Below are positions 1,746-27,922 of a stretch of 64,000 bases of DNA, piece by piece (position 1 is the stretch's first letter; each line of letters begins with the position of its first letter). The stretch spans positions 98,357-162,356 of the forward strand of contig JAOUHG010000002.1 of assembly GCA_029865265.1 (NCBI GenBank), in the 5' to 3' direction. The notes beneath the pieces were generated by a model. The model saw nothing but the letters and a program-made list of their open reading frames with translations. It did not search any database and was not told where the DNA came from. The DNA comes from Candidatus Krumholzibacteriia bacterium (lineage in GTDB: Bacteria; Krumholzibacteriota; Krumholzibacteriia; WVZY01; JAKEHA01). Position numbers and translations under genes: made by a program.

Positions 1746-3146
1746 TCAACGGCCTTTTACCGCACCGGCCGGCGCCCCGCCCGGGCCATGGTCGATCCGC
1801 TTCCAGAACGCCTCCACCTCGAAGTCCGGGCTCTGGTCCTCGTTGTGGCAGTCCCGGCACAGGCTGCGTGCGTCTTCCACGCCGGGTCTGACGTCCGGGT
1901 CCCGCACGTGACCGGCCGCATTGCCGTGGCAGGACTCGCACTGCACGCCGGTGAGGTGGGGGGTGGCAACGACGTTCTCGAAGCCCCCGTTCTTATAGAA
2001 GCCCACCGAGTGGCACGGTGTGCAATCCCGGTCGAACTCGCGCGAGAGGTCGGTGAGCGTTTCCCAGGCGTGCGCGTGCCGTGTGTCCGACCACGCGGCG
2101 TGGATGTCCTCGTGGCACTCCCGGCACGCCTCCGCGCCCTGGAAACGGCTGTGGGAGAGGTTGCGCACGTTGGTGACACCGGTGGGGAGCGTCGCGCGCT
2201 CCTTGGCGGCGATGTCGAAGTCGTAGGCCTGGAACAGGCGGCCGATGGCCTCGTCGTCCGGAAAGCGCTCGTCCATGGGAACCACCGCATCCTGCATGCT
2301 GGCGACGCGCCCGTCGGGCCCCAGCGTGGCGTAGGCCACGCCCATGTACAGCCCGCGCGCCGCGAGCTCGAGCAGGTAGGCGTCGCCGAAACGGCGCAAC
2401 TGGCGCATGGGCTTCCCGTCGTGCCCGTGGAACACGGCGTCCACCCCGCGCAGCAATTCCGTGAAGCGTTGCGCCTCCCCGCGCGGCATGTGCGCCAGCA
2501 CCACCACCAGGTCCACATCGCCGCGCATCCCGTCCACCACCGGCTGCACGGCCGCCAGCGGGTCGCGAATGTCCAGCGATCCCGCCGCCACCTGCGGCGG
2601 CAGCGCAATGGCGGGGCTCATCACGCCCGCAATGCCCACGCGCAGGCCGGAGGGCAGCGTAACCACGCGCGACGCCGGAAAGATCAACGTATCCCCGACC
2701 GCGTCGTACAGATTGGCCGCCACGATGGGCAGCCGCGCGTCGCGGGAACGCCGCAGGATGAAGTCCAGTCCGAAACCGAGTTCGTCCTCGCCGATCACCA
2801 CAGCGTGATAGCCCATGAGCGCCATGGACTTGAGGGTGACGTCGGCCTTCTCGACGCCGTAGTTGATGCTCGCGCCGAAAAAATCGCCCGCATCCACCAG
2901 CAGCATGTCTCCGGTGGTGTCCGCGACGGCCTTCAGGAAGGTGGCACGTCGTCCCAACCCGCCCAGGTCGTGTTCGGAGCACCCGCAGGAGCGGATCTCG
3001 CCCCACAGGTCGTTGGAGTAGGCAATGGCGAGACGCTTCGGCGCCGTCTTTTCCTCGCCGCAACCACCCAGCGCCAGCACCGCGAGCAGCATCGCGATTG
3101 CGCCAGGGCCACGACGGCCGAGAATCTGTCCAAATGAAAGGGTCAT
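1746..3146 (-). CDS. Lipoprotein: UshA/5'-nucleotidase-like metallophosphoesterase-fold domain with non-canonical metal ligands, fused to a C-terminal tetraheme c-type cytochrome
   Basis: ATG at 3146 gives MTLSFGQ...LALGGCGEE (lipobox). The N-terminal half has calcineurin-like blocks (VDAGDFFG, LPIVAANLY), but the DxH and GNHE His/Asn ligands are replaced (AYSNDLWGE, IGEDELG). The C-terminal ~150 aa carry four CxxCH heme motifs (CRECH, CTPCH, CESCH, CRDCH), resembling the cytochrome c554/c552 family. Confidence 0.65.
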   Translation of the reverse strand: MTLSFGQILGRRGPGAIAMLLAVLALGGCGEEKTAPKRLAIAYSNDLWGEIRSCGCSEHDLGGLGRRATFLKAVADTTGDMLLVDAGDFFGASINYGVEKADVTLKSMALMGYHAVVIGEDELGFGLDFILRRSRDARLPIVAANLYDAVGDTLIFPASRVVTLPSGLRVGIAGVMSPAIALPPQVAAGSLDIRDPLAAVQPVVDGMRGDVDLVVVLAHMPRGEAQRFTELLRGVDAVFHGHDGKPMRQLRRFGDAYLLELAARGLYMGVAYATLGPDGRVASMQDAVVPMDERFPDDEAIGRLFQAYDFDIAAKERATLPTGVTNVRNLSHSRFQGAEACRECHEDIHAAWSDTRHAHAWETLTDLSREFDRDCTPCHSVGFYKNGGFENVVATPHLTGVQCESCHGNAAGHVRDPDVRPGVEDARSLCRDCHNEDQSPDFEVEAFWKRIDHGPGGAPAGAVKGR

Positions 3147-3352
3147 ACATTTACCTGTGGCGACCACGGATCTCCATGTTAAGCGAACGCCGGTGGTTTA
3201 CGCCAGCACTGCCCCCGCACAAGATGGCGCTTGACGCAACTCCGGGCACGATGCTCATTGAAAGCACGAAGCCAAATTGCTTCGCGATCCCACCCCTCGT
3301 TTCGTCACACCGGTGAGCCCCACCGACTCCGGGATGTATCCAGGAGGATGGC

Positions 3353-5833
3353 ATGAAACGAGGTTCGCTGGCGCTCGTTGCGCCGTTTCTGTTTGCAATC
3401 CCCACTGTCGCCGCGGCCCGTCACAGCTATACACCACCGGCGTCCAAGACCGGCGGTGAGCCGCAGCGTGTGTTCGTGCTCGACGGGTCCACCGTCCATA
3501 ACGTGGGCGAACTGCAGATGCACCTGGGCAACTGGGGGTTGTTCGGCTCCCTGCCCGGTGCCGGGGCCGCGTATTCCGAGGCCCCCTCGGCGCAATGGCC
3601 TGCGGGCAGCGGCACCGAGTACCTGTTCGGCGCCGGCCTGTGGGTGGGCGCGCTCAAGAACGGCATCCCCGCCGTGTCCACCACCCTGGGCTTCGATCCC
3701 AACGGCATCGTCTTCGAATTCGATCCCGGCCGCGACACCCGCGACATCATGTACCGCGCCGCGGAAGGCACCCGCGGCGGCGCCCGCGCGCCCGCCGAGG
3801 CCGACGACGACGGCGACGGCGCGGTGGATGAAGACCCGCTCAACGGCTATGACGACGACGGCGACGGCGCCATCGACGAGGACTTCGCCGCCATCTCCAA
3901 CCAGATGTTCGCCTGCCGCTATGCCGACTATTACCCGGAAACCGCGCGCGCGTTCCCGCAGCACAACCCGCTCGGGCTGGAGGTGCGGCAGCAGAGCTTC
4001 CAGTGGGAGGAAGACCGCTACGACGATTTCGTGGGCATCGAGTTTCACATCACAAACGCCGGCAGCAACGTGCTGGAAGACGTTTACGTGGGTTTCTTCG
4101 CCGACGGCGACGCCGGCCAGCGCACCACTGACCGCTACTATGAAGACGACGCCACCGGCCGCAGTTTCGTCCCGGTGGAATGCACCGACCTTGGACCCGT
4201 CTCCATGGACATCGCCTACGTCTTCGACGCCGACGGCGACGAGGGCCGCACGCTGGGTTACCTGGGCATCATGTTCCTGGGTCATACCGTGGACCCCACC
4301 GGCGAAACCGCGCCGCGGCGTGTGGGCATCAGCACCTACGCCAACTTCTCGGGCAGCGCGTCGTTCGAGGACGGCGGCGATCCCACCAACGACTTCGAGC
4401 GCTACGAACTGCTGTCATCGAAGGTGATCGAGCGCAACGCGCAGGTACCGCGCGACTACCGCATGCTGATGGCGGCCGGCCCCTTCAAGGAGCTGCTGCC
4501 CGGCAGCACGCTCGTGTTCCAGACCGCCTTCGTCATCGGCGAACGCTATGCCGGCATGGTGGCCAACGCGGCCAGCGCGCAGCTCACCTACGAGGGCGCC
4601 TGGTTCGACCAGGACAACGACGACCTCACCGGCGCCACCGGTCGCGAGACACCGGTGGTCGGCCCCGCCATGGGGGTGGCCATCGACACCTGCCGCTTCG
4701 CCCAGCAACCGCCGGTCAACGTTCCGCGCGGGCAGACGGTGTGGATCAACAACGACTGCGCGCGCGAGGAGATCTTCCGCGCCGGCTGCGGATACACGCT
4801 GGAGGACTCGCTCAAGTTCATGACCGGCGTGGACGGCCAGGAGACACACATCTACTGGCTGGTGGGAACCGCGCCGCCGCCGCCGACGCTTCGCATCGAC
4901 GCCGCCGCGCGCGACGGTGTCGCCATCTACTGGGACAACTTCAGCGAGGTCACGCCCGACGTAAAGACGCTCAGGCTGGACTTCGAGGGCTATCGTGTAT
5001 TCCGGGCGGACAACTGGACGCGGCCGACGGGAACATCCGCGCGAACCGGGCCGCCGTCCAACTTGTGGAAGCTGCTCCGTGCCATGGACGTGGTAAACGG
5101 GCTGGGGGATGATACGGGGCTCAACCCGTTCCGCTACGAACCGCTCGCCCACATCCTCGAGCCGGCCCAGAAGCGCGACATGATCGAGAGCATGAAGCAG
5201 TACCTCACCGAGTACCCCGGCGCGGACCCGCCCTGCCCGCAGGGCGTAACCCCCCAGGTGTGCGACACGCTGGAGGCGCTGGCGGCATACGAACTGGGGA
5301 TGATGGAGCGCGGCCGCCAGTACTACCGCTACATCGACCGCAGCATGCACCGTGGCCGCCCTTACTTCTACGCGGTGACCGCTTCCGATCACGGCGAAGA
5401 CGAAGACACCCGCGCCCTCACCCCGGGAAAGATGGGCGACCCCGCCGCGAACTTCGTGTTCGTCGAACCGCAACAACCCTCGCAGGCGGACTACGCCTAC
5501 CGCGACGAGGCGGTGTATGTGGTCCCCAACCCGGCCACCCGGGAGTCGATGCAGCCCTGGGCGCTCGGTCCCAACAACGACGACCCCACCGGCATCAAGG
5601 TGGAGTTCCGCAACCTCCCCGCGGACCGCGGCACGATCCGCATCTTCACCCTGGCCGGGGACCTGGTGGAGGAGATCGGGTTCGACGGGCGCGGGGGGGT
5701 GGGAACGGCCGAATGGGACCTGGTGTCGCGCAATGGCCAGGACGTCGCGAGCGGCGTCTATCTATTTTCCGTGGAGACCGATTTCAACGCCGCCTTCGCG
5801 CGCAAAGTCGGCAAGTTCGTGGTGATCCGCTAG
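3353..5833 (+). CDS. Secreted 826-aa protein with Asp-rich calcium-binding repeats (thrombospondin type-3-like), an FN3-like region and a T9SS type-A C-terminal sorting domain; paralog A
   Basis: AGGAGG SD 6 nt upstream. Signal peptide MKRGSLALVAPFLFAIPTVAAA. Repeats of the form DDDGDGAVDEDPLNGYDDDGDGAIDED. The last ~90 aa (VYVVPNPA...IRIFTLAGDLV...WDLVSRNGQDVASGVYLF...KVGKFVVIR) fit the Por_Secre_tail/FlgD-Ig-like pattern. Confidence 0.7.
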   Translation: MKRGSLALVAPFLFAIPTVAAARHSYTPPASKTGGEPQRVFVLDGSTVHNVGELQMHLGNWGLFGSLPGAGAAYSEAPSAQWPAGSGTEYLFGAGLWVGALKNGIPAVSTTLGFDPNGIVFEFDPGRDTRDIMYRAAEGTRGGARAPAEADDDGDGAVDEDPLNGYDDDGDGAIDEDFAAISNQMFACRYADYYPETARAFPQHNPLGLEVRQQSFQWEEDRYDDFVGIEFHITNAGSNVLEDVYVGFFADGDAGQRTTDRYYEDDATGRSFVPVECTDLGPVSMDIAYVFDADGDEGRTLGYLGIMFLGHTVDPTGETAPRRVGISTYANFSGSASFEDGGDPTNDFERYELLSSKVIERNAQVPRDYRMLMAAGPFKELLPGSTLVFQTAFVIGERYAGMVANAASAQLTYEGAWFDQDNDDLTGATGRETPVVGPAMGVAIDTCRFAQQPPVNVPRGQTVWINNDCAREEIFRAGCGYTLEDSLKFMTGVDGQETHIYWLVGTAPPPPTLRIDAAARDGVAIYWDNFSEVTPDVKTLRLDFEGYRVFRADNWTRPTGTSARTGPPSNLWKLLRAMDVVNGLGDDTGLNPFRYEPLAHILEPAQKRDMIESMKQYLTEYPGADPPCPQGVTPQVCDTLEALAAYELGMMERGRQYYRYIDRSMHRGRPYFYAVTASDHGEDEDTRALTPGKMGDPAANFVFVEPQQPSQADYAYRDEAVYVVPNPATRESMQPWALGPNNDDPTGIKVEFRNLPADRGTIRIFTLAGDLVEEIGFDGRGGVGTAEWDLVSRNGQDVASGVYLFSVETDFNAAFARKVGKFVVIR

Positions 5834-5858
5834 GATACCGGCCTTGCGGGTCCCGCCC

Positions 5859-5886
5859 CGGGGGGCGCGCTCCGGCGCGCCCCCCG
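5859..5886 (+). terminator. Perfect 12-bp GC hairpin (CGGGGGGCGCGC-tccg-GCGCGCCCCCCG), possible terminator between the two paralogs
   Basis: Inverted repeat read directly, 26 nt after the stop at 5833. There is no U-tract, so termination function is uncertain. Confidence 0.35.
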
Positions 5887-6078
5887 AGAGACCGCTCCCC
5901 GGCCCCGGGCCGGCCTCCCCCCCGAGCGCTGTATCCGCAATTGTGCCTTGACAGTCCGCCCGCCGCATGGCACCTTTTCCAGTGATCCCACCACTCGTAT
6001 CGGCCGTAGGCGGCCGGCCAACAGCCTGTTCCCAGTACGCATGTTACGGTCTTCCGGACTGATAGGAAGGATACCGGA

Positions 6079-8562
6079 ATGAGAAAGCGCAATGTGTGGT
6101 CCGCCGGCCTGTTCATCGTGGCCGCCGTACTTCCGTCCCTCGTGTTCGCGCGCATCGACACCCCCAGCGAGGTCACCAAGAAGGGCCAGACCGGCCCCAA
6201 CCGGATCTTTGTGCTGGATGGCTCCAACGTTCACAACGTCGGCGAGTTGCAGATGCACGTCGGCAACTGGGGACAGTTCGGCTCCTGGCCGGGCTCGGGG
6301 CTGACCTTCTCCGAGGCTCCTTCCGCGCAGTGGCCCGCGGGCAGCGGTGTCGAGTACCTGTTCGTGGCCGGCATGTGGGTGGGCGCGTTGAAGGCGGGCG
6401 TCCCGGCGGTGTCCACCGCCGCGTATGCGTTCGAATTCCGCCCGACCCAGGACCCCCTCGACATCATGTATCGCGCGGCCGAGGGTGCCCGGGGCGGCGC
6501 GCGCGCGCCATCCGACAACCGCGACGACGACAAGGACGGCGAGGTGGACGAGGACTGGCTCAACGGGCGCGACGACGACGGCGACGGTCAGATCGACGAG
6601 GACTTCGCGGCCGTCTCCAAGCAGATGTTCGTGTGCCAGTACACCGACGACCAGCCCTCCGCCACGCAGATCTATCCGCAGCACAACCCGCTGAACCTCC
6701 ACGTGCGCCAGGAGAGCTACCAGTGGGAGGAAGACCGCTTCGACGACTTTATCGGCGCCCAGTTCATCATCACCAACCAGGGCAACAACGTCCTCGAGGA
6801 CGTGTACATCGGCTTCTTCGCCGACGGTGACGCCGGTCCGCGTGACGTGGACAACTACTGGGAAGACGACGCCACCGGCCGCCGCGCCGTGCCCGTGCTG
6901 TGCACCGACCTCGGCCCGGTGTCGATGGACATCGCGTTCGTGTTCGACGCCGACGGCGACAACGGCCGCACGCTCGGCTACCTGGGGATCATGTTCCTCG
7001 ACCACACCATCGACCCCAACGGCGAGTTCGCACCGCGCCGCGTGGGCATCAGCACCTACGCCAACTTCTCGGGCAGCGCCTCGTTCGAAGACGGTGGCGA
7101 TCCCACCAACGACTTCGAGCGCTACGAGCTGCTCTCGTCGAAGATCATCGAGCGCGACGCGCAGGTGCCGCGCGACTACCGCATGCTCATGGCGGCGGGG
7201 CCGTTCAAGGAGCTGCTGCCCGGCAGCACGCTCGTGTTCCAGACCGCCTTCGTGATCGGAAACCGCCTGGACGGGATGATCGCCAACGGTGCCAACGCGC
7301 AGCTCACCTTCGAGGGCGCATGGTTCAACCTGCTCGGTGACGACCCGGTGCCGACCGGATACGCGGGGCGCGAAACGCCCGTACCGGGACCGGCCAGCGG
7401 TATCGCCGTCGATACCTGTCGCTATCAGAACGCGCCGCCCATCAACGTTCCCCGCGGCCAGACGGTCTGGATCAACAACGACTGCGCCGAAGAGCAGCTC
7501 TTCCAGACCGCCTGCGGTTACGACCCGGCCAAGGAAGACACACTCAAGTTCATGACCGGTGTCGGCGGCAACGAGACCCAGATATTCTGGATCGTGGGCA
7601 CGGCACCGCCGCCGCCGTTTCTGCGCATCGACGACACGAGCACCGACGGCGTCGCTATCTACTGGGACAACTTCAGCGAGACCAAGCCGGACATCAAGAC
7701 GCTGAAGGACGACTTCGAGGGCTACCGGCTGTTCCGCGCCGACAACTGGACGCGGCCGACCGGCACCTCGGCTTCCAACGGCCCGCCCAAGGAGTTGTGG
7801 AAATTGCTGGTGGAGATGGACCTGATCAACAACTTCGGCGAGGACACAGGGCTCGACCGCTACCGTTACGAGCCGCTGACCAGCATTCTCTCCCCGTCGG
7901 TCAAGCGGGACATGATCAACTCGATCAAGCAGTACCTGACCGAGTACCCGGGTTCCAACCCGCCGTGCCCGCAGGGCGTCACCTCGGAAGTGTGCGACAC
8001 GCTGGGTGCGCTGGCCGCGTGGGAACTGGGAATCACCGACAAGGGGCGGCAGTACTACCGCTACGTCGACCGCAGCATGCACCGCGGGCGGCCGTACTTC
8101 TACGCGGTGACCGCGGGTGACCACGCCATCGCTTCCGACGGGACCTTCTTCGAGGGACTCGTGGGTGATCCGTCATCGAACTTCGTGTTCATCGAGCCGG
8201 GCGGACCCTCGCAGGCGGATTATGCCTACAACGAAGACGATGTCTACGTGGTACCCAACCCAGCCACCACGGAGTCCATGCAGCCGTGGACGCTGGGCCC
8301 CAACAACGACGATCCCACCGGTATCAAGGTGGAGTTCCGCAACCTGCCCGCCGATCAGGGCACCATCCGCATCTTCACCCTCGCGGGTGACCTGGTGGAG
8401 GAGCTCTACTTCGACGGCCGCACCGGCAACGGTACGGTGGAGTGGGATCTCGTCAGCCGCAACGGCCAGGACATCACCAGCGGCGTTTACCTGTTCGCCA
8501 TCGACACCGATACCAACGAGGCCTACAGGCGCAAGATCGGCAAGTTCGTCGTCATTCGGTAG
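6079..8562 (+). CDS. Paralog B of the 826-aa secreted Ca-binding-repeat / T9SS-tail protein (827 aa)
   Basis: AGGAAGGA SD. Signal peptide MRKRNVWSAGLFIVAAVLPSLVFA. Same architecture as 3353..5833 with long identical peptide stretches (e.g. GISTYANFSGSASFEDGGDPTNDFERYELLSSK) and near-identical nucleotide tracts. Ends ...GKFVVIR. Confidence 0.7.
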   Translation: MRKRNVWSAGLFIVAAVLPSLVFARIDTPSEVTKKGQTGPNRIFVLDGSNVHNVGELQMHVGNWGQFGSWPGSGLTFSEAPSAQWPAGSGVEYLFVAGMWVGALKAGVPAVSTAAYAFEFRPTQDPLDIMYRAAEGARGGARAPSDNRDDDKDGEVDEDWLNGRDDDGDGQIDEDFAAVSKQMFVCQYTDDQPSATQIYPQHNPLNLHVRQESYQWEEDRFDDFIGAQFIITNQGNNVLEDVYIGFFADGDAGPRDVDNYWEDDATGRRAVPVLCTDLGPVSMDIAFVFDADGDNGRTLGYLGIMFLDHTIDPNGEFAPRRVGISTYANFSGSASFEDGGDPTNDFERYELLSSKIIERDAQVPRDYRMLMAAGPFKELLPGSTLVFQTAFVIGNRLDGMIANGANAQLTFEGAWFNLLGDDPVPTGYAGRETPVPGPASGIAVDTCRYQNAPPINVPRGQTVWINNDCAEEQLFQTACGYDPAKEDTLKFMTGVGGNETQIFWIVGTAPPPPFLRIDDTSTDGVAIYWDNFSETKPDIKTLKDDFEGYRLFRADNWTRPTGTSASNGPPKELWKLLVEMDLINNFGEDTGLDRYRYEPLTSILSPSVKRDMINSIKQYLTEYPGSNPPCPQGVTSEVCDTLGALAAWELGITDKGRQYYRYVDRSMHRGRPYFYAVTAGDHAIASDGTFFEGLVGDPSSNFVFIEPGGPSQADYAYNEDDVYVVPNPATTESMQPWTLGPNNDDPTGIKVEFRNLPADQGTIRIFTLAGDLVEELYFDGRTGNGTVEWDLVSRNGQDITSGVYLFAIDTDTNEAYRRKIGKFVVIR

Positions 8563-8590
8563 CCGTTCCTTTTCAGGATCGAACAAACCA

Positions 8591-8640
8591 GCGGGCTCGC
8601 CCATTGTGGGCGGGCCCGCGCCGTTTGCCCTCTTCTTTGC
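8591..8640 (+). terminator. Rho-independent terminator after paralog B
   Basis: GCGGGCTCGCCC-attg-GGGCGGGCCCGC (12-bp stem with one G.U pair) followed by a T-rich run CGTTTGCCCTCTTCTTTGCTTG. Confidence 0.45.
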
Positions 8641-8703
8641 TTGTCGCCCCTCGCGACGCTCGCCTAGAATGATGCCACGCTGGCGCACCCGGCGCATCCG
8701 GCC

Positions 8704-10032
8704 ATGCAAAGATCCATTGTATCCGCGCGGACACGGCCCACGTTGTTCGTGGTCTTTCTCGCCGCGTTCTCGGCCGTGCTCGTCCTGTCCAACCTGGCGC
8801 TGTACCGACGCGCGCGCGGCCACCTCGACAGCCAGCTGGGCGAACGTCTGCGCGCCATCGCCACCGCGGTGGCCCACGAGGTGGAGGACGCCGGGCCGGA
8901 TTCGCTCACCGCGGGCACCATCGACCCCGTCCTCTACGACCAGTTGCTGATCGCGCGCGACGACCACCAGCTCTCCAACATCGTCATCATCTCCGCCGCC
9001 GGAAACACCGCCATCGACCTGGCCGGTTACAGCGAGCCCGGAGACGAGAACCCCTTCATCCAGCTCGACGTGGCGGCCGTCGCCCTCGCCCGCGCCGGCG
9101 TGGCGGCGTACACAAGCCTGTACCGGACCGGCGACGTGTACCTGAAGAGCGCCTACGCGCCCGTCCACGGCGTGACCGGCACGATCATCGGCGTCGTCGG
9201 CGTGGAGGCTGGCGCGTCGTTCTTTGCACAGCTGCGCGAGCTGCGCGACCTCATCGTGCTCATCTCGCTGGGCAATGCCTCGGTGGTCATCCTGCTGGGG
9301 TTTCTCTTCTACCGCCGCACGCGTTCGCTGGAACGCGCGCGGGAGGCGATGATCGAGACGGACAACCTGGCCACGCTGGGCAGAATGGTGGCGACGATCG
9401 CGCACGAGATTCGCAACCCGTTGAGCATCATCCGGGCCTCGGCACAGCGCGTGCAACGCCGGCACGCCATCGACGATGAAGCGCTCACCTACATCGTCGA
9501 CGAGGTGGACGGGCTGGATCGTGTCCTCACCGGCTATCTCCAGTTTGCGAAGTCGCAACCCGCGGCGTTCGTCCCCCTCGAAGTCGGCCGCATCCTGCGC
9601 CGGGCCCTGCTGGCGGTCGAGAACCAGGCCAAGGCCGGGAATATCGAGGTGGGGGTGCAGGACACCGGCGCTCTGACCCTGCATGGCGATGAACGGCGCG
9701 TGCGCCAGGCGGTGCTGAACGTGCTGTTGAACGCCCTGGAGGTCACCCCGCAGGGCGGACGCATAGGCATTGACGTGGGCCACGATGCCGGGCACGTTAC
9801 TATCAGCGTGAGCGACAGCGGGCCGGGCATCGACCCCGCCATTCTCAAGGACGTCACGCGTCCCTTCTTCACCACCCGGGTCGACGGCAGTGGTCTCGGC
9901 CTGAGCGTGGTGCAGTCGGTGATGGAGGAGCACGGCGGCAGCCTGCGCATCGAGCGGGCGGACTCAGGCGGCGCGCGCATCGTGCTTTCCTTTCCGCGGG
10001 ACCCGGGCGCGGCAACTGCCGCAAAGGAGTAG
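8704..10032 (+). CDS. Sensor histidine kinase with N-terminal TM/periplasmic region, HisKA and HATPase_c
   Basis: H-box IAHEIRNPLSII. N-box LLNALEVTPQGG. G-boxes VSDSGPGI and GSGLGLSVV. N-terminal hydrophobic segment. Confidence 0.8.
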   Translation: MQRSIVSARTRPTLFVVFLAAFSAVLVLSNLALYRRARGHLDSQLGERLRAIATAVAHEVEDAGPDSLTAGTIDPVLYDQLLIARDDHQLSNIVIISAAGNTAIDLAGYSEPGDENPFIQLDVAAVALARAGVAAYTSLYRTGDVYLKSAYAPVHGVTGTIIGVVGVEAGASFFAQLRELRDLIVLISLGNASVVILLGFLFYRRTRSLERAREAMIETDNLATLGRMVATIAHEIRNPLSIIRASAQRVQRRHAIDDEALTYIVDEVDGLDRVLTGYLQFAKSQPAAFVPLEVGRILRRALLAVENQAKAGNIEVGVQDTGALTLHGDERRVRQAVLNVLLNALEVTPQGGRIGIDVGHDAGHVTISVSDSGPGIDPAILKDVTRPFFTTRVDGSGLGLSVVQSVMEEHGGSLRIERADSGGARIVLSFPRDPGAATAAKE

Positions 10033-10040
10033 GCCCCAGC

Positions 10041-11372
<1,332 letters not shown>

Positions 11373-11558
11373 CGGACTGGACCACCCGGTGCACGGGGTG
11401 CCCCTGCGCGGTCACCCGCCGCAGACGGTCCGGGCCACGCCGGCCCGCGGGTTCTTGCAACATATTGCCGCATTTTCACATACGTCACCGGCCGTCCGGG
11501 CGCGCGGCTGGCACCCGGCTTGCGGTATCCGGCCCGGGACACGGTCCCGGAGACGACC

Positions 11559-12839
11559 ATGAAAGCATTTCTCATATTCCTGTCGATCTGCGCCGCATCT
11601 CTGGTGACGGCGCCGGTACCCACCACCGCCCAGGGCAACATGGACTCGGTGCGCGGCTTCATCGAACGCAACGCCGAACTCCTCGGCGTGGCCACCGCCG
11701 TGGTGCAGGAGACCAACAGCATCCGCGCCCGCGGTCTGCTGGAGACCGCGACCACCCTGCACAAGCAGTCGGTGGGTCTGCTCGAGCAGAATTCCAACGC
11801 GCAGGCGGGACGGGTGGCGGTCCGCGCGCGCGAGGTCATTCAGCAGACCATCTCGGTGGCCAAACGCGACGCCCGCATCGAAGAACAGGCCGTGCGCACC
11901 ATGGAGCGCGCCACCACCCGCCTCGAACAGGCACGCATCGTGTTCGAAGAAGACGGGAACGACAAGATCGTCGCGCGCCGCCTCATCCTCGAATCGGCCG
12001 ACAACCTCCGGCGGGCACGCGAGCAGGTGCAGCAGCACATGTTCGAAACGTCGCTGCGCCTGGCCGAATCCTCGCTGGCCCTGTCCAACCGCGCCATCCG
12101 CATGCTACGGCGCGACGGTCTGGGCCCGGACGTGGCCGAAGAGATAGACCGCACGCAGAGCATCATCGAGCGCGCGGGCGAATCGCGCGCGTCGCACGAC
12201 CCGGCGTTGAACCGGTTGCTGGAGCAGGCGAACGAGTTGCAGCGGCGCGCGGTACGCAGCGCGGAGCGTGGCGACGCCGCCATCGCCGTGGAGCAGACCC
12301 GGGGTGCGCGCAACCTGGCCCTGCGCGCCATGCGTGCGGGCGGCGGCGCCGGCGCGTCCGACGAGGAACAGGCGGTGCGCGCGGTGGCACTCACCGACGC
12401 CGTTCTGGAGGGCGCGCGTGACGTGCTGGGTGAGTCCGCTCACGACGGTGCGACGCGCAGGGTGGAAGAAGCTGCACGCCAGCAGGACGACGCACGCCGC
12501 GCCCTCGGCGACGGCGACTACAAGCGCGCCCTTGCCCTGTCCACCAGCGCCCGCGAGGCGGTGCGTGCCGCGCTGCGCGGCATGGACGTGGCGGTGGACC
12601 CCGCGTCCGTCGAATCCGCCCTGGCGCGCACCGACGATGCCATCACAAAACTCGGCGATACCATCGCCGGCAGCGACCGTGCCACCGCGCGTGAGTTCTT
12701 CGAACGCGCGACCTCCCGCCAGCGCGAGGCGCGGGCCGCACTCGGCGACGGTGACCCCCGGCGCGCGCTCGCGCTCACCCGCGTGGCACACAACCTGGCC
12801 CGCAGCGGACTGTCCGCCATGAAAGATGCGGAGAACTGA
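11559..12839 (+). CDS. Secreted alpha-helical repeat protein of unknown function
   Basis: ATG at 11559 gives MKAFLIFLSICAASLVTAPVPTTAQG (signal peptide). Ala/Arg/Glu-rich with repeated ALGDGDxxRALAL segments. No known catalytic motif. Confidence 0.5.
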   Translation: MKAFLIFLSICAASLVTAPVPTTAQGNMDSVRGFIERNAELLGVATAVVQETNSIRARGLLETATTLHKQSVGLLEQNSNAQAGRVAVRAREVIQQTISVAKRDARIEEQAVRTMERATTRLEQARIVFEEDGNDKIVARRLILESADNLRRAREQVQQHMFETSLRLAESSLALSNRAIRMLRRDGLGPDVAEEIDRTQSIIERAGESRASHDPALNRLLEQANELQRRAVRSAERGDAAIAVEQTRGARNLALRAMRAGGGAGASDEEQAVRAVALTDAVLEGARDVLGESAHDGATRRVEEAARQQDDARRALGDGDYKRALALSTSAREAVRAALRGMDVAVDPASVESALARTDDAITKLGDTIAGSDRATAREFFERATSRQREARAALGDGDPRRALALTRVAHNLARSGLSAMKDAEN

Positions 12840-13143
12840 CCTCCTTCGCCCCGTCGCACTGGCCGCCGCCATCACGCTCTCGGCGTGCGCCGGGACGGGA
12901 ACGCCGCCGCGCGCGCCGGAGACGGCGGCGTCCGCGAACGACGCGCCGCTTCAGGACCTGCTGGCCCGCCTCGAGATCCTCATTGCCAACGACGAAGCCC
13001 ACGGATCGCTCCCCGACGCGGTCCTCGCCGAGGCGCGCGCGCTGCGCGTGGAGGCGCTGGCAGCGTTGGCCGCCGGTGACGAGCCGCTTGCGATCGACCT
13101 GCTCACCGCCGCCATCGCGCTGTTCGGGGACGGGCACGGATGA
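12826..13143 (+). CDS. Small lipoprotein, ~105 aa
   Basis: MRRTDLLRPVALAAAITLSACAG lipobox. Overlaps the upstream stop by 14 nt and its own stop overlaps the next start (ATGA), suggesting an operon. The start is uncertain. Confidence 0.4.
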   Translation: MRRTDLLRPVALAAAITLSACAGTGTPPRAPETAASANDAPLQDLLARLEILIANDEAHGSLPDAVLAEARALRVEALAALAAGDEPLAIDLLTAAIALFGDGHG

Positions 13144-14432
13144 GCGCCGGACACCGCCCCGGGATCGGCGCGCTCGCGGGGGCCGCACTCCTGCTCGGGA
13201 TCACGCAACTCTCCTCCCCGGCAACCGCCGCCGGACGTTGGCTGGGCTCGCTGGAACTGGGTTTCGACACCTACACCGAGCGCTATTCCATCTCCGAGGC
13301 CGACACGCTGAGCAGCATCAACGAAGCACGCTCGCGCCTGCGGGTGGCGTGGGTGACCGGCGCGCTGGGCCGCAACTACTCGCTGCTGGAGGGCCGGCAA
13401 TACCTGGGTGAATCCAGCTGGGAAACGGCGGTGCACGGCCTGCTCACCCGCCGCCTGGGCAGCGCCCGGTGGGTGGTGAACCTGGACGGCGAGGTCGCGC
13501 GGCGGGGCTTCCAGGAAGGAGCGGGCTACGAGTTCCCCAACGACTACACCCGCGCCTACGCGCGCGCGGGTCTGCGCGCGCGGGCGGGAACCCACCTGAC
13601 GGTCCGGCTGGACGACCGCGTCGAGAACCTGGATTACGAACGTCGCACCGAGTTCGACTACGACTACACGCGTAACGTTGCCACCGCCATGCTCGACGTG
13701 GGCCGCGACCCCTTCCGTGGCGTATCGGGCGGGATCCGCCTTACCACCATGTCCATCCCGGACAGCACGGAGATCGAGTACCACGCGCTGGGCCCGCTGC
13801 TGGAGGTGCGCATGTTCGGTGCGCCCCACGAGCGGTTGTACGTGAATGTTTCCACGGAAAAGCGCGACTATCCCGACGGCGGCACCCGCAGCTCGTTCTG
13901 GTCGGTGCTGGTCTCCGGGTTGTTCGAGTGGCCGGTGGCGGAGCACTGGAGCATTGAAATGGCGACCGATACCGAGAACTATGACTACGACGTCGCCACC
14001 GGCGCGTACGACGACTACCTGGAGTCGCGCAACTACATGGCCGTAAACTGGTACAGTGGGGGGTTCCGGTTCGGGGCGGGCCCGGCGTTCGGGTGGCTGT
14101 CCAGCACGGACGTGCCGCAGGAGGAGTACCGCGAACTGGGCGTGCGACTGGCCCTGGAGCAGATCGGCGTGAGCGGGCTCTACCTGTGGGCCTCATACGA
14201 ACCCGGCACGCGTGACTACGAGGCGTTCTCCTCCGGCACGGCAACAATCGACGACAGCGAGGTGATCTTCTCGGACTACGTCTACCACCGCGTGAATCTG
14301 TTTGTGAACGCGCGCGTGTACCGCGCGCTGTGGCTCAACGTCCTGTTTGACTGGCAGCCCGAGGACCACGACCGCGATGGCGACGACGCCACCGCGACGG
14401 TGGGCTCGGTATCCCTGATGTACCAGTTCTGA
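13140..14432 (+). CDS. Putative outer-membrane beta-barrel protein
   Basis: N-terminal signal-like segment. Alternating amphipathic strands rich in Tyr/Trp/Gly. Terminal ...VSLMYQF with a C-terminal Phe typical of OMP barrels. Confidence 0.45.
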   Translation: MSAGHRPGIGALAGAALLLGITQLSSPATAAGRWLGSLELGFDTYTERYSISEADTLSSINEARSRLRVAWVTGALGRNYSLLEGRQYLGESSWETAVHGLLTRRLGSARWVVNLDGEVARRGFQEGAGYEFPNDYTRAYARAGLRARAGTHLTVRLDDRVENLDYERRTEFDYDYTRNVATAMLDVGRDPFRGVSGGIRLTTMSIPDSTEIEYHALGPLLEVRMFGAPHERLYVNVSTEKRDYPDGGTRSSFWSVLVSGLFEWPVAEHWSIEMATDTENYDYDVATGAYDDYLESRNYMAVNWYSGGFRFGAGPAFGWLSSTDVPQEEYRELGVRLALEQIGVSGLYLWASYEPGTRDYEAFSSGTATIDDSEVIFSDYVYHRVNLFVNARVYRALWLNVLFDWQPEDHDRDGDDATATVGSVSLMYQF

Positions 14433-17652: not shown

Positions 17653-18230
17653 CTATTTGACCAGCAGCATCTTGCGCGTGTCGGTGAAACCACCCGCCAC
17701 CATGCGGTAGAAGTAGACGCCGGAACTGACCGGCGCACCCGCGTCGTTGCGCCCATCCCAACGTGACTGGTAGCGGCCCGCGGCCTTGTGCTCGTTGACC
17801 AGCGTGCGCACCCGCGCACCCCGCACGTCGTAGATCACCAGACTCACCGCGTTGCGGATGCCGCCCGGCACCCAGTAGTCGATGCTCGTCACGGGGTTGA
17901 ACGGGTTGGGGTGGTTCTGGCCCAGCTTCGCGATCGTCACCGGTACCAGCACCGCCAGCGTCTCGTTGACCACACCGCCCTCTCCCTCCAGCCGGTAGAC
18001 GTAGCGCGAGCCCATCTCCACGCCCCGGTCCACCACCCGCACCTCACCGTCCATGGACAGGCCCACCGCGCTCGCCACCCGCCGGTACGGGCCAGGCGCA
18101 TCGTCCTTCAGCTCCGCCCGGCTCACGTTGAACAACCCGCCGCTCGCGCTCAGCGGAACCGTCCACACCAGTTCCATGCCCCCGCCCAGCGCCGCGTAGC
18201 GGAACGAGGCACCACCCACCGGGGTGGGAA
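17653..18230 (-). repeat. Copy 1 of a ~580-nt near-identical 3' gene segment shared by the three giant genes
   Basis: Encoded peptide PTPVGGASFRYAALGGGMELVWTVPLSASGGLFNVSRAELKD...VNETLAVLVPVTIAKLGQN.PNPFNPVT...YDVRGARVRTLV is almost invariant in all three proteins. The spurious small ORFs in the track over these regions are also near-identical, which shows nucleotide-level identity. Confidence 0.6.
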
Positions 18231-21200
18231 CCACGAAGCCGTGGGCCCCGTTGTTGTGCGCGTTGGCGTGGAAGCGCGGCCACGGCGCGGTGGCCGGGTT
18301 CCAGCTACCGGAGAAATCCCACACGTAGAGGCTCTTGTCCCAGCCCGCGGCGACGAGATCAATGTCGCCATCCTGATCCACGTCGTTGAGTTCGGGTACG
18401 CCGCGCATCGCGTCGTCGGTCTTGAGCGGGAAGCCGGCGATCAACTGGCCGCTCACGTTCCACGCGTACAGGTACTGGGTCTCGCTGCCGATCACGATGT
18501 CGGGATTCCCGTCCCCGTCGACGTCGGCGATGACCGGCGACGACTCGGTGTAGGTGGTGGTGGTGTACTGCCTGGGCCACCCCGCCAGCACGACACCATT
18601 GCTCTGCGTGCCGTAGATGTTGCCACTGCCGCGCGCCACGAAGATCTCCAGCTTGCCGTCGCCGGTGACATTGCCGATCGCGGGCGACGAGGCGAAGAAG
18701 GGGTTCCAGGGGGCATTGCTGAAGTACTGCGACATCTGCAGCGTCGCATCATGGTTGATCACGAACAGGTTACCGGCCGCCGTGTTGACCACAATTTCGA
18801 GGTCGCCGTTGTTGTCAACGTCACCAATCGCCGGACTTCCCGCCACGTCGGAAGCAAGCGCGTACGGCCACCCCGGGCTCACGGAACCGTCTTCGTTGAA
18901 TACGTAGAGCTGGTCGCCCTGCGAACCCACGATCAGCTCTTCCATGTTGTCGCCATCGATGTCCGCCATGGCTGGCGTGGAATAGTTGAATGTGCAATTG
19001 GGCATGCGGAAGAACACGCCCTGCGTGAGCGGATTGAAGTCGCCGTCGATGAATTCGCTGCCGTCGGCATTCCAGGCGTAGATCACACCCTTCTCGTCCA
19101 CCGCGATCACTTCCAGCAGATTGTCCCCGTCGAGATCGCCCGCCGCCACCCCGGCGCGGACGAAGTTCTCCGCGCTCCGGGGCCAGCCGGGCAGCAGGGC
19201 CCCCTGATGGTTGAACACGTACACCTGCTTGAGGTCGCGCGAGGCTGCGATGACCTCCAGGCCGGGCGCCGCGTCCAGGCGCGCCAGCGCCGCGTGTGCC
19301 ACAAACGATCCCCCGACCGGGGACAGCACGCCCCAGGTCTGGGCGTCGCCGTCTCCGTTGATCACTTCACTCCCGTCGCTGTTGAAGGCGTAAACCTTGT
19401 CGGCGCACACCACGATTTCGAGATCGCCGTCGCCGTCGATATCGCCCACCACCGGCGAGGAACTGGTTTCGGAGCCCAGCGGAAGGGGGAACCCGGAGAC
19501 CTGCTGCGGGTTCGTGCTGCCCGAGGCCACGGCCGACGGCGCGCTCTCGTTGCCGGAGGTATCGATGGTGGTGGCCCTGAAGTAGTACAGGGAATTGGAC
19601 GTCAGTCCCCGGTCGAGAAACACGGTGTGCGACACCGGGTCGACCGTGGACTTCACCCACGGCCCTACCGGCGTCGTGGACCGATAGACGTGGTAGGTTT
19701 CGGCATCACCGCTCACACTCGCCGACCAGAAGACCTGCAGACGGTCCGGCCCCAGACTGGGGTCGATGACCAGCCCCACAGGGGCAACCGGCGGACGCAA
19801 CTCGACGATGTCCTGGTACGAGCGCCCGTAGGTGTCGACGATCTCGACCAGCAGGCGGTGCTCGCTGGCGACACTGGTCTCGATCATCTCGAACCCGGCG
19901 GTGTTCTCCGCCTCGGCCATGGGCGCCACGGCCGCATAGCTGTCGTTAGCGCCGATCAGCGTGAAACCGGCGTCCAGATCGGTGATGGTCGCGGACCCGC
20001 CCGGAAAGGCACCGGTGCCGAAGTTCTTGACCTTGTAGAACAGGTGGAACTGCTCGCCGGCATCGACAATGCCGTCGCCGTTGCCGTTGGCCACGTCATC
20101 GATGCGCAACGTCACCTGGAACAGCCCGGGCTGGTGAACTTCCTTCTTGAATGTGTCACGCCACGCCTCGCCGCCGTCGTTCTTGATGACCAGCGTGAAG
20201 GGCACCGGGTAGGCGTCCGGGTATGCGTCGTCGAAGGTGACGCGCACGCCGCCGCCCGCAACCACCGTTGCCCCGCTGGCGATGACACCCGCCGCGGCCG
20301 TGCTGTCGTCCAGCACGACACCCGGGTCGCTGCTGCGCAGGGTAACGGTGACGTCACCGGTGGACACCGGGCCGGTGTTCTTGAGGGACAGCGCCAGGTC
20401 GACGGTTTCTCCACCCTCGATGACACCGTTGCCGTTACCGGCGGTGCCGCCCGTGTTGTCGTCGTCTACCGTCATGCCCGCAATCTGCACGTATGCTGCC
20501 GCGGCCGTCACGGTGATGGTGCCGTCGTAGCGCCGCTGATTGTGACCGGTAACCACGACGTCGATAGCGCCGGGAGACCGGGCGCGGAACGGCAGCGTGG
20601 CCTGTCCGCTCATGTCCGTGGTGGCCACCGCGTAGTCGTCGCCGCCTTTGGTCAGGCAGACGGTGGCACCCTCCACCGGATTGCCACCACTCATCACCGT
20701 GACCAGGATGTTCTGCTTGCCGGCGGACACGCTGGCGGCGTGGGTCACATCCGTCGTCGCGGGACGGTGCGTCCACATGGGCAGCTCGGGGTCGGCGAGG
20801 AGCGTGTAGATGTAGTGCGTCCACAGGTCGACGTTGTCACCGAGCAGGGCCAGCGGTGTGCGCAGCGCGCGCGAGCGGGCGAAGGTCTCGCCGATGTTCG
20901 TAACCGCCGAATCAAACGCCAGTTTGTAGTACTCGTTCATGTACGCCGACGAGGCGTTCGGGAAGGCGCTCTCGTTGGCGCCCACCACCGACACCGCGCC
21001 CCCGTTGGGATTGCGCAGGAAGTGCTCCGCCAGGCAGTAGTACGTGTACGATGCCCCGGTGCAGTTCAGAAAGTAGAGGCACGATAGACGGTTTCCGTTG
21101 ATGAGCGCGTCCGCATCGGAGTTCACGATGCTGGCGTCGGACACCGACATGTTGAAGCGATAGCCGTGCCCGATATGCACCACGTGGTTGAACCCGGTAT

Positions 21201-22611
21201 TGAGCGAGTCCAGAACCGCCGCCCGGTTCTCGTCCACCGAGCCCGGGAAGTACTCCTGCGTCTCGTACATGCGCACGACATCGAGTCCCGGGGCGGTCAG
21301 ATGGTTGTTGTAGATGGTCTCGGTGAGATCGGCACCGTTGACGGTGATCGCCTGGGGTGGCGACCAGTTCAGCGGGAAAAGCACCTCGCCCAGCAGGAGC
21401 ACGCGATGGCCGAACGAGAGGTCGGCCGGAGTCTCGTAGGCGATGACCTTGCCGGTCATCATGGCCACTTCCGCCACCGACGAGGTCGGCAAGCGGCCCA
21501 CGTACACCTCGGCGTAGAGGTCGGCTCCGTCTATCGGCGTGCCCTCCCCGAAAATGGCGTCGCCGTCCGCGTTCCACGAACCATCCAGGCAACCGAAGTA
21601 CATGTCCACCGGCAGGAAACGCCCGCCGTCGTAGAAGCCGCTCCACGCCAGGCGCGGCGCGATCTCGCCGGTGTCTCCGCCCAGCAGCAGATAGGTGATC
21701 CCCCACTTTGCATACGCGTCCTTGACGAAGTTGCGGATGGTCTCCTGCGGGTCCGAGCCGTTGCGATAGTTGGCCTCGATCCACTCCGTGGTGCGCACCA
21801 CCGTCGGGACACCCTTGCCCGTCTTGAAGTCCGCCAGCGCCTGGTAGGCGGCCGCCAGCGAATCGGGGGTTACGATTACGTAATCGACCGCGCTGCCCTC
21901 CAGCGAGGGAAAGGTCGAGGGGGCGAAGCCACCGTCCGGCGCGGGCACGTCGACGGCACCAAAGCTGTAACCCGCCGCGTCGGCGCTGTTGATCACGAGC
22001 CGCGAAAGTTCTCCCTGGATGCGCTGCATGGCACGCGGACGGCGCCGCACCATGTGGACGGGCGCCGGTTGCGCGGATGGCGTGGTCTCGATTTCGAGCG
22101 TGACGGCCGGGTAGGCAACCAGATCCTCTCCGGACAACGACAGCGGATACACCGCGAAACTGGCGATGGTGTAACCATGCAGGGTTCCCACACCAAGCAG
22201 ACGCGCGCGCTCGGCGGGAAACGCCCCGCCTGACGCCAGCGACACCAGCGCGGTCGATTGCCCCGCGACGCCGTCTTCGGTGCGCATCGCATCCGCGAGC
22301 ACCGGGCTCACGCGGGTGGCGATGACGGTGGTGCCGCGTGCATCTGCGGCGAACGACGCCAGCTCGTGCCCCTGGGGCAACAGCACGCTCACGATGCGGT
22401 ACGGCAGCGCCGGGCGCCCCTCGTCCGCGAGGGTGGAATAGCCGTCGGCGCGCACCGAGACCGCGTGCCCCGCGGCGGTACCGCGCACGTCCACGTCGGC
22501 GGGGTCGAGCACCAGTTGGTAGGAGAGGGTCGTAGCCTGCGCAGAAAGCACGCCGGCTGCGAGCAGGAGTCCGGTGGCCAGAACGGGAATTGCAACTCGG
22601 AATCGTTTCAT
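17653..22611 (-). CDS. Giant secreted protein 1 (~1652 aa): peptidase C25 (gingipain-like) domain + FN3 + FG-GAP/VCBS beta-propeller repeats + conserved pre-tail module + T9SS type-A sorting domain
   Basis: ATG at 22611 gives MKRFRVAIPVLATGLLLAAGVLSAQA (signal peptide), with a GGAGGTGA SD. C25 entry block DYVIVTPDSLAAAYQALADFKTGKGVPTVVRTTEWI. His/Cys dyad context HVVHIGHG ... YFLNCTGAS. Repeated DxDxDGxxExxxG FG-GAP blades. Ends ...KLGQNHPNPFNPVTSIDYW...IYDVRGARVRTLV...SGVYFYRMVAGGF..RKMLLVK (Por_Secre_tail). Confidence 0.8.
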   Translation of the reverse strand: MKRFRVAIPVLATGLLLAAGVLSAQATTLSYQLVLDPADVDVRGTAAGHAVSVRADGYSTLADEGRPALPYRIVSVLLPQGHELASFAADARGTTVIATRVSPVLADAMRTEDGVAGQSTALVSLASGGAFPAERARLLGVGTLHGYTIASFAVYPLSLSGEDLVAYPAVTLEIETTPSAQPAPVHMVRRRPRAMQRIQGELSRLVINSADAAGYSFGAVDVPAPDGGFAPSTFPSLEGSAVDYVIVTPDSLAAAYQALADFKTGKGVPTVVRTTEWIEANYRNGSDPQETIRNFVKDAYAKWGITYLLLGGDTGEIAPRLAWSGFYDGGRFLPVDMYFGCLDGSWNADGDAIFGEGTPIDGADLYAEVYVGRLPTSSVAEVAMMTGKVIAYETPADLSFGHRVLLLGEVLFPLNWSPPQAITVNGADLTETIYNNHLTAPGLDVVRMYETQEYFPGSVDENRAAVLDSLNTGFNHVVHIGHGYRFNMSVSDASIVNSDADALINGNRLSCLYFLNCTGASYTYYCLAEHFLRNPNGGAVSVVGANESAFPNASSAYMNEYYKLAFDSAVTNIGETFARSRALRTPLALLGDNVDLWTHYIYTLLADPELPMWTHRPATTDVTHAASVSAGKQNILVTVMSGGNPVEGATVCLTKGGDDYAVATTDMSGQATLPFRARSPGAIDVVVTGHNQRRYDGTITVTAAAAYVQIAGMTVDDDNTGGTAGNGNGVIEGGETVDLALSLKNTGPVSTGDVTVTLRSSDPGVVLDDSTAAAGVIASGATVVAGGGVRVTFDDAYPDAYPVPFTLVIKNDGGEAWRDTFKKEVHQPGLFQVTLRIDDVANGNGDGIVDAGEQFHLFYKVKNFGTGAFPGGSATITDLDAGFTLIGANDSYAAVAPMAEAENTAGFEMIETSVASEHRLLVEIVDTYGRSYQDIVELRPPVAPVGLVIDPSLGPDRLQVFWSASVSGDAETYHVYRSTTPVGPWVKSTVDPVSHTVFLDRGLTSNSLYYFRATTIDTSGNESAPSAVASGSTNPQQVSGFPLPLGSETSSSPVVGDIDGDGDLEIVVCADKVYAFNSDGSEVINGDGDAQTWGVLSPVGGSFVAHAALARLDAAPGLEVIAASRDLKQVYVFNHQGALLPGWPRSAENFVRAGVAAGDLDGDNLLEVIAVDEKGVIYAWNADGSEFIDGDFNPLTQGVFFRMPNCTFNYSTPAMADIDGDNMEELIVGSQGDQLYVFNEDGSVSPGWPYALASDVAGSPAIGDVDNNGDLEIVVNTAAGNLFVINHDATLQMSQYFSNAPWNPFFASSPAIGNVTGDGKLEIFVARGSGNIYGTQSNGVVLAGWPRQYTTTTYTESSPVIADVDGDGNPDIVIGSETQYLYAWNVSGQLIAGFPLKTDDAMRGVPELNDVDQDGDIDLVAAGWDKSLYVWDFSGSWNPATAPWPRFHANAHNNGAHGFVVPTPVGGASFRYAALGGGMELVWTVPLSASGGLFNVSRAELKDDAPGPYRRVASAVGLSMDGEVRVVDRGVEMGSRYVYRLEGEGGVVNETLAVLVPVTIAKLGQNHPNPFNPVTSIDYWVPGGIRNAVSLVIYDVRGARVRTLVNEHKAAGRYQSRWDGRNDAGAPVSSGVYFYRMVAGGFTDTRKMLLVK

Positions 22612-22655
22612 GAGACCGTCACCTCCGCGTCGGGTCGCGGTTGGGAATACGAACG

Positions 22656-27587: not shown

Positions 27588-27842
27588 CAGAGACAACCTC
27601 CGGTACGCGCGGTCAGTCGTTCGCCGGTAGGAGCGACGGCGATCTTCGGACCATCTGCTGGTCTTGCCGCGCGTCCGTGGCGCCGCGGCTATGTCAAATC
27701 ACGGAGAAATGGAAAACCGTTGTTGGTAGCAGATCGCGTTTCGCTTGCGCTCCCGCGGTTGGTTGTTGAACCGCCCAATGATGAGTACATCATTATATCG
27801 CAACGGGATCGGCCCGTCAATGGCAGAGTCTGCGCGACGACA

Positions 27843-27893
27843 GCCATCCGGGATCTGCTGGTGTGTCGAGGAGGTATGCTCGTCCCGGATGGC
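27843..27893 (-). terminator. GC hairpin (11-bp stem GCCATCCGGGA/TCCCGGATGGC, 29-nt loop) ~30 nt downstream of the giant gene 3 stop; possible terminator
   Basis: Inverted repeat read from the sequence in the 326-nt gap between giant genes 3 and 2. No U-tract. Confidence 0.3.
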
Positions 27894-27922
27894 CTGCCGC
27901 GCAGAAATTCTTGCCCGTTTCT

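Follow-up and report, generated by a model that had tools for sequence, protein, structure and literature searches.

Two adjacent genes for related secreted proteins, followed by genes for a sensor kinase, a sigma54-dependent response regulator, and three envelope proteins, are found in a Candidatus Krumholzibacteriia bacterium (GenBank assembly GCA_029865265.1, contig JAOUHG010000002.1). The question raised by this locus is whether its seven genes form one regulated cell-surface module, as an initial annotation made from the sequence alone had suggested, or separate systems that lie side by side. Our analysis covered a stretch of 64,000 nucleotides (positions 98,357 to 162,356 of the contig, forward strand; hereafter the window), in which the seven open reading frames (ORFs) at 3353-14432 were all present as first described, the second secreted protein being 827 amino acids (aa) long. 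The results favor, with a probability of about 0.6, two functionally separate units that adjoin each other only in one Candidatus Krumholzibacteria clade; this figure is for the explanation as a whole, including the roles proposed below for both units. The two secreted proteins, paralogs A and B, belong to a family of 826-aa secreted proteins designated here FAM.

The window contains exactly one perfect match to the sigma54 promoter pattern TGGCAC-N5-TTGC (0.23 expected over both strands). This -24/-12 promoter (TGGCACCCGGCTTGC; 11509-11523, + strand) is located 35 nt before the ATG at 11559 of the gene for a secreted all-helical repeat protein (11559-12839, +; 426 aa from that ATG), within the 186-nt gap between this gene and that of the regulator (10041-11372, +). 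The initial annotation had proposed a scan for this pattern and had overlooked the site, which the scan of the 64-kb window places upstream of the three-gene operon. A GG-N10-GC element is found in the same intergenic region in 9/9 orthologous loci (the window and eight others), including locus L087, whose barrel is only 23% identical to that of the window. Because the window's only perfect site precedes this operon and is conserved in all nine loci, the kinase (8704-10032, +) and the NtrC-family regulator are most likely, on sequence grounds, to control the helical protein, a small lipoprotein (12826-13143, +; 105 aa), and a porin-like outer-membrane beta-barrel predicted to have 20 strands (13140-14432, +). 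The mechanically called ORF of the helical protein starts at TTG 11520, which overlaps the promoter, and this start is unlikely to be used. An AT-rich stretch with short palindromic pieces (e.g., TTGCAACATATTGC) is present at 11440-11480, 30-70 nt upstream of the sigma54 promoter, with equivalents in L001, L004, L007, L009, L086, and L088; it is a candidate enhancer or integration host factor site for the NtrC-type regulator.

The transcription signals of the FAM genes are of another kind. Upstream of A (3353-5833, +), positions 3230-3294 (+) contain CTTGACG, a 17-nt spacer ending TG, the hexamer CTCATT, and then GATCCCACC; upstream of B (6079-8562, +), positions 5947-5992 (+) contain CTTGACA, a 17-nt spacer ending TGG, the hexamer CACCTT, and then GATCCCACC. 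This sigma70-like layout (CTTGAC, a 17-nt spacer usually ending TG, a T-rich hexamer, and CCCAC) recurs ahead of 13/13 FAM genes in the window and in nine related loci. As first annotated, each paralog has its own Shine-Dalgarno sequence (GGAGG or GGAAGG) and terminator-like hairpin: that after A (5859-5886, +) has a 12-bp GC stem and no U-tract (z = -2.7; -45 kcal/mol for the 72 nt around it), and that after B (8591-8619, +) has a 13-bp stem with a U-rich tract behind it (z = -4.4). We infer that A and B are transcribed independently, each from its own promoter to its own hairpin. The first reading had reported no -24/-12 promoter ahead of either paralog, and a scan allowing up to two mismatches was likewise empty, as was a scan of the FAM upstream regions of five close relative loci, searched in full with up to one mismatch; sigma54 control of A or B was rejected on the former result.

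The CCCCAC / GATCCCACC motif is invariant after the -10-like hexamer (3286-3294 and 5984-5992 in the window; same position in L001, L002, L004, L007, L008, L009, L086, and L088), with a gap between hexamer and CCCCAC of 10-13 nt in single and downstream FAM copies and 25-33 nt in upstream copies. It could be a transcription start mark or a regulator binding site. No consensus structure was predicted for a leader RNA upstream of the FAM genes, where only the CCCCAC motif is conserved, and an Rfam scan of the whole window gave no match.

Gene order in relatives was compared by tblastn of the window proteins against 85 loci, adjacency being counted where the flanking sequence sufficed. The kinase gene adjoins FAM in 5/6 loci in which FAM is >55% identical to that of the window, in 0/21 at 40-55%, and in 0/25 at <40%. 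In the close clade the whole neighborhood is collinear, with shared flanks that include genes for tyrosyl-tRNA synthetase, PBP1, alanine racemase, cytochrome c554, and electron-transfer flavoprotein (ETF); the synteny check suggested by the initial annotation therefore shows the arrangement to be conserved in close relatives. In the single-module reading, all seven genes act together and the sigma54 regulator controls the 826-aa proteins; the order FAM-kinase-regulator-helical-small-barrel, kept in all six close relatives with enough flank and also in L086 and L088 (barrel 35-39% identical), and the placement of all the genes on the same strand speak in its favor. However, the only sigma54 site belongs to the three-gene operon, the FAM promoters are conserved and sigma70-like, and hairpins follow both paralogs; L008 encodes FAM without the kinase-to-barrel unit, the ETF genes coming directly after FAM, whereas L087 encodes the kinase, regulator, helical, small, and barrel proteins without FAM and in a different neighborhood. 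A gene for a tetratricopeptide repeat (TPR) protein of ~370 aa, absent from the window, separates FAM from the kinase in L002 (15248-16366), L007 (7762-8889), L009, and L088 (4237-5325), and in its wider context FAM is part of a different operon. A single module under the sigma54 regulator is thus improbable, and the initial annotation is not upheld on this point.

The unit in L087 (1-11313) is flanked by genes for an extracytoplasmic function (ECF) sigma factor, an anti-sigma factor, a thioredoxin, an M48 peptidase, and a PDZ protein, which hints at an envelope-stress or quality-control setting. A 702-aa protein encoded ahead of the L087 kinase was considered as a distant FAM member and rejected, as BLASTP found no similarity.

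The FAM family is large, with 1,277 matches in a collection clustered at 90% identity. The best 120 of these are 61-90% identical, and those that bear a name are all called "hypothetical protein"; a HMMER scan of representatives at 50% identity gave 258 clusters at E <= 1e-30 and 1,099 at E <= 1e-10. In Pfam, NCBIfam, and homology searches the 826-aa proteins match no characterized family, in line with the initial statement that no protein here matches a characterized enzyme, and neither the FAM profile nor the tail alone gave anything significant against the sequences of solved structures. Across the same loci FAM is about as conserved as the ETF subunits (61-78% versus 60-80%).

In distant relatives (29-53% identity), found in Krumholzibacteriota, Eisenbacteria, Latescibacterota, and metagenome-assembled genomes (MAGs) labeled Fibrobacteraceae, FAM has a conserved gene order: a receptor of ~1,040 aa, FAM, a barrel of ~320 aa, and a protein of ~500 aa, followed in many loci by ExbB, ExbD (one or two copies), TonB, a TolC-like protein, and MacAB-like genes. 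The receptor has the CarboxypepD_reg, Plug, and TonB_dep_Rec domains (Pfam/NCBIfam), the barrel belongs to the PorV/PorQ family (NF033709, 182 bits; cut-off 90), the 500-aa protein has a GWxTD domain (71.6 bits; cut-off 28), and genes later in the operon were identified as MotA_ExbB, ExbD, and TonB_C. FAM adjoins the TonB-dependent receptor in 30/55 loci of the FAM sample with enough flank. Among 80 metagenome loci sampled independently, with the PorV/PorQ-like gene as anchor, FAM is directly upstream of the barrel in 65/68, the order receptor-FAM-barrel is found in 16/19, and GWxTD is downstream in 35/40; in three loci the receptor is directly beside the barrel with no FAM between them. In the literature searched there were no papers on GWxTD, or on type IX secretion in Krumholzibacteriota or Latescibacteria, and no description of this operon was found.

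Homologs of the receptor, PorV/PorQ-like, GWxTD, ExbBD, and TonB genes were not found in the 64-kb window, and contigs with a window-type FAM also carry homologs of the PorV/PorQ-like barrel. On chromosome CP070677, the receptor, PorV/PorQ-like, GWxTD, ExbB, ExbD, ExbD, and TonB genes are found without FAM at 24.9-43.9 kb, and a FAM gene (product 64% identical to A) is found with the kinase, the regulator, and the three envelope genes at 201.8-223.0 kb; the FAM-less operon likewise occurs in L170. This distribution suggests that FAM moved out of an ancestral operon in the lineage leading to the window. L170 (2257-8949) also has two tandem CarboxypepD_reg proteins of ~1,000 aa before its PorV/PorQ-like gene, and only the second has a recorded match to the TonB-receptor barrel. 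Judging from gene context, FAM also diversifies beyond the operon: second-locus copies are present in three other Krumholzibacteria MAGs (locus pairs L012/L023, L013/L021, and L024/L027), those of L021 and L023 beside a ~750-aa protein with no Pfam domain and that of L024 beside unclustered genes; L012 and L013 hold the in-operon copy, and the copy in L027 follows V-ATPase genes without a receptor.

From N- to C-terminus, paralog A comprises a signal peptide, a beta-supersandwich N-domain with an Asp-rich calcium-type loop, a Cys-rich linker, an FN3-like region, and a divergent C-terminal domain of the type IX secretion system (T9SS) type. The AlphaFold2 (AF2) model has a mean pLDDT of 66.7, with the beta-rich N-terminal half and residues 600-700 well modeled. 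The best structure matches of the N-domain are glycoside hydrolase (GH) families GH15, GH94, GH65, and GH116, and Foldseek agrees; the model shows a galactose-mutarotase-like beta-supersandwich, followed by an FN3-like region and the divergent T9SS-type domain. The Asp-rich motif D-x-D-x-D-G-x-x-D-E-D occurs twice, at about residues 151-177, and is invariant in 48 homologs. These had been described as thrombospondin-type-3-like repeats, and the generic DxDxDGxxDxD motif is indeed present twice, but the Pfam TSP_3 profile (PF02412) does not match the paralogs at E <= 0.1. Six cysteines are also invariant, and with the invariant motif pair they make FAM fit an extracytoplasmic calcium-binding protein; the signal peptide lacks a Cys. 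For the FN3-like region of the initial annotation, the only matches are those of Foldseek to tandem FN3 domains, so that this assignment is a weak one.

In another reading, FAM would be an enzyme acting on carbohydrates (a hydrolase, lyase, or epimerase) with a catalytic site in the supersandwich, and the alignment does contain many invariant Asp, Glu, His, Trp, and Tyr residues. In GH15, GH94, GH65, and GH116, however, the supersandwich is a non-catalytic N-terminal module; the (alpha/alpha)6 catalytic domain that follows it in those enzymes is absent from the FAM model, where the remainder consists of the FN3-like region and the tail. There is no GH or other CAZy-type Pfam match, and no sugar-utilization genes were seen in the conserved operon. 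An enzymatic role is accordingly very unlikely.

The tail resembles T9SS type-A sorting domains (TIGR04183 / PF18962) in pattern more than in score. The FlgD_ig profile (PF13860) gives 18.3 and 16.0 bits for the two paralogs (cut-off 27), and TIGR04183 gives 16.2 bits for B (cut-off 23), A not being among the listed matches. The A and B tails share with the window's canonical tails a PNP... motif, I-x-I-[FY]-x-[LV]-x-G-x-LV, WD...RNG...SGVY-[LF], and a basic hydrophobic end, and carry an extra insertion of ~15 aa relative to them. The T9SS-type tail of the initial annotation is a tentative assignment: four other window proteins that share its motif pattern pass TIGR04183 (24-31 bits), but the paralogs give no match above the curated cut-offs. 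In the AF2 model, residues 747-824 form a seven-strand unit, and Foldseek gives weak matches to PorU. Many relatives of 520-650 aa align only to the N-terminal ~400 residues, and the two that were checked bear a FlgD_ig-type tail.

The role proposed for FAM combines these features. The protein would cross the inner membrane by Sec and may reach the surface by the T9SS-type route that the genome's other tail-bearing proteins take; its tail would then bind the PorV/PorQ-family barrel and be retained there, as PorZ and PorU are held with PorQ and PorV. At the surface FAM could serve as a ligand-binding partner that presents a ligand, probably a glycan, to the TonB-dependent receptor, and A and B may still serve the receptor in trans. 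This proposal recalls the SusC/SusD systems of Bacteroidota: in relatives, FAM is encoded directly after a receptor of ~1,000 aa with an N-terminal CarboxypepD_reg domain, FAM itself, a predicted extracytoplasmic protein, has a fold common in carbohydrate-binding modules, and ExbB-ExbD-TonB genes follow in many loci. Unlike SusD, a helical TPR-like lipoprotein, FAM is a predicted beta-sandwich with a T9SS-type tail and no SusD Pfam match; the operon looks single-copy, is highly conserved, and lacks glycoside hydrolases, and in the window no receptor gene is adjacent to FAM.

Several observations weigh against the two-unit explanation and the roles it assigns. The FAM model is of medium confidence (pLDDT 66.7) and its Asp-rich loop is poorly modeled; the supersandwich is known, too, from proteins without sugar binding, among them copper amine oxidase and YidC (periplasmic domain); the tail falls below the curated T9SS cut-offs; and the receptor encoded beside FAM matches no SusC or RagA model. 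The FAM-less operon is known from two relatives of the window's clade (L169 and L170). The persistence of adjacency down to 35% barrel identity (L086) may reflect a looser functional tie between FAM and the kinase in this clade. FAM is also near single-copy in appearance and highly conserved, unlike typical nutrient-specific binding proteins, and the conservation of its sequence suggests a housekeeping machine at least as well as a niche nutrient system.

Because FAM is about as conserved as the ETF subunits, a secretion-and-attachment role stays alive, in which FAM would be a PorZ/PorU-like, tail-retaining surface subunit that processes or anchors T9SS-tail cargo with the PorV/PorQ-family barrel, the TonB-dependent-receptor-like barrel and ExbBD-TonB being part of the same machine. 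In Porphyromonas gingivalis, the attachment complex in which PorU and PorZ act at the surface also contains PorV and PorQ (PMC11285876). The FAM tail matches the PorZ and PorU tails best, and their C-terminal domains are the best NCBIfam matches of FAM as a whole; FAM, with its putative C-terminal Ig-like sorting domain, is encoded beside a 300-aa barrel of the PorV/PorQ family and directly upstream of it in nearly all loci of the anchored sample; and at least four window proteins have T9SS type-A tails above the curated cut-off. The PorZ/PorU matches cover only the tail, at 25 bits against a cut-off of 260, and FAM lacks both the beta-propellers of PorZ and the C25 peptidase domain of PorU. 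The TonB-dependent receptor and GWxTD protein with which FAM is paired have no equivalent in the complex as described, and the host phylum is not Bacteroidota. We regard this alternative as unlikely, and prefer a ligand-presenting partner of the receptor as the role of FAM.

Our analysis also permits a broader and more tentative proposal, possible but doubtful, in which FAM, the TonB-dependent receptor, the PorV/PorQ barrel, and the GWxTD protein constitute a four-part outer-membrane machine, not described before and nearly universal in Krumholzibacteriota, Eisenbacteria, Latescibacterota, and Fibrobacterota-like lineages. Its surface subunit would be a non-lipoprotein, tethered by a retained T9SS-type tail to the PorQ-like barrel and feeding a TonB-powered channel, so that the whole would be a SusCD analogue built from T9SS parts; the window's clade would encode the surface subunit in trans, and in this genome in duplicate.

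The second unit comprises the kinase, the regulator, and the three envelope genes. The kinase has HisKA (2.7e-10) and HATPase_c (7.5e-25) domains, and two hydrophobic segments, recognized by eye in the translation, flank a periplasmic region without domain assignment. The regulator has Response_reg (1.8e-26), Sigma54_activat (6.8e-71), and HTH_8 (1.1e-15) domains, that is, a receiver, an AAA+ domain in which GAFTGA is seen in the translation, and a Fis-type helix-turn-helix; these Pfam domains confirm the sensor kinase and NtrC-family activator of the initial annotation. Domain architecture, an adjacent HisKA/HATPase kinase, and a -24/-12 promoter at the target together place the pair in the NtrC family. 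The nearest NCBIfam models are AtoS and ZraS for the kinase and AtoC, NtrC, and ZraR for the regulator, all matched well below the equivalog cut-offs.

The three probable target genes form the overlapping envelope operon first described: the helical and small-protein genes overlap by 14 nt and the small-protein and barrel genes by 4 nt. Internal repeats are present both in the helical protein, which begins with a signal peptide, and in its L087 homolog (33% identical). The small protein has the lipobox LSAC and a conserved C-terminal helical hairpin; in 5/6 orthologs the signal peptide ends at, or close to, a Cys. The barrel model, a confident one (pLDDT 88.3, 20 strands), resembles Occ/OprD porins, AlgE, MtrB, and transporter barrels at the level of fold only, and a fragment of the barrel is 100% identical to the NCBI entry OEY69_09450 of Candidatus Krumholzibacteria. 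A Pfam search at E <= 5 gave no credible match for any of the three envelope proteins or for their L087 homologs. OprD/Occ and AlgE barrels have 18 strands; the window barrel differs from them in its predicted 20 strands, shares 8-10% identity, and has its gene in an operon with those of the helical periplasmic protein and the small lipoprotein.

In this unit the kinase would sense an envelope or periplasmic signal and phosphorylate the NtrC-type regulator, which would activate sigma54-dependent transcription of the helical protein, the small lipoprotein, and the porin-like barrel; by analogy with ZraSR-ZraP, an envelope signal might thus switch on a channel and its periplasmic partners. ZraR drives zraP from a -24/-12 promoter located beside the regulator gene, and in the window such a promoter is likewise beside the regulator gene and ahead of a secreted helical protein. 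Unlike in the ZraSR/ZraP and AtoSC systems, the 426-aa helical protein has no match to ZraP, CpxP, or Spy, and its gene shares the putative target operon with those of a lipoprotein and a 20-strand barrel.

The tandem pair itself is a second point on which the initial annotation needs revision. That A and B are paralogs is plain (~72-73% protein identity end to end; BLASTP 72%, E = 0); paralog B is also identical to database protein P0005, from a 1.04-Mb contig. The pair had been ascribed to recent duplication or conversion on account of long identical peptide and nucleotide tracts. Such tracts exist but are modest, the longest being 38 aa and 50 nt, in genes with 74.7% nucleotide identity overall and 71-82% block by block. 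Divergence by the NG86 method (dN 0.21, dS 0.79, dN/dS 0.26) indicates purifying selection on both copies. B shares 78.9% identity with L001 and 75.5% with the downstream copy in L004, against 73% with A, the orthologs of A form a set of their own (P0001-P0004, 76-90% identity), and the tree groups B with orthologs from other genomes. A recent duplication or gene conversion was rejected on the block identities, dS, the longest match, and the tree; the duplication is old. Since tandem pairs are found in L002 and L007 versus single copies in L001, L009, L086, and L088, duplication of FAM is recurrent in the clade.

Other genes of the window (G+C 63-73% over its first 20 kb) include one for a multiheme cytochrome c554-like protein (1746-3167, - strand; 473 aa), divergent from paralog A, a pairing kept in all close relatives. 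Three tandem paralogous giants (17653-33070, -; 1703, 1646, and 1715 aa) each have a Peptidase_C25 domain, FG-GAP repeats, and a T9SS type-A tail passing TIGR04183, and a C25-giant-like gene is found at the same relative position in L001; these giants were considered as PorU and rejected (~75 bits against a cut-off of 420). A predicted secreted protein of 604 aa (33139-34953, -) has a C-terminal matrixin/M57-like zinc-peptidase motif, and another of 587 aa (56370-58133, -) has a Big_5 domain, FG-GAP repeats, and a T9SS type-A tail.

The locus consists, then, of two uncharacterized and separable envelope systems. Its adjacency within a single clade was misleading, and only comparison with distant relatives split it into its real units. 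For the orphan sigma54 two-component system, the conserved -24/-12 promoter points to a clean one-operon regulon. The more interesting result lies outside the window, in the conserved receptor / FAM / PorV-PorQ / GWxTD operon: FAM is a large family with conservation at the level of core enzymes, and the named copies examined are annotated as hypothetical. The operon suggests how PorV/PorQ-type barrels may be used outside Bacteroidota, and the placement of FAM with a receptor, a PorV/PorQ barrel, a GWxTD protein, and TonB provides a concrete basis for the study of outer-membrane organization in the uncultured phyla of the Fibrobacterota-Chlorobiota-Bacteroidota (FCB) group.

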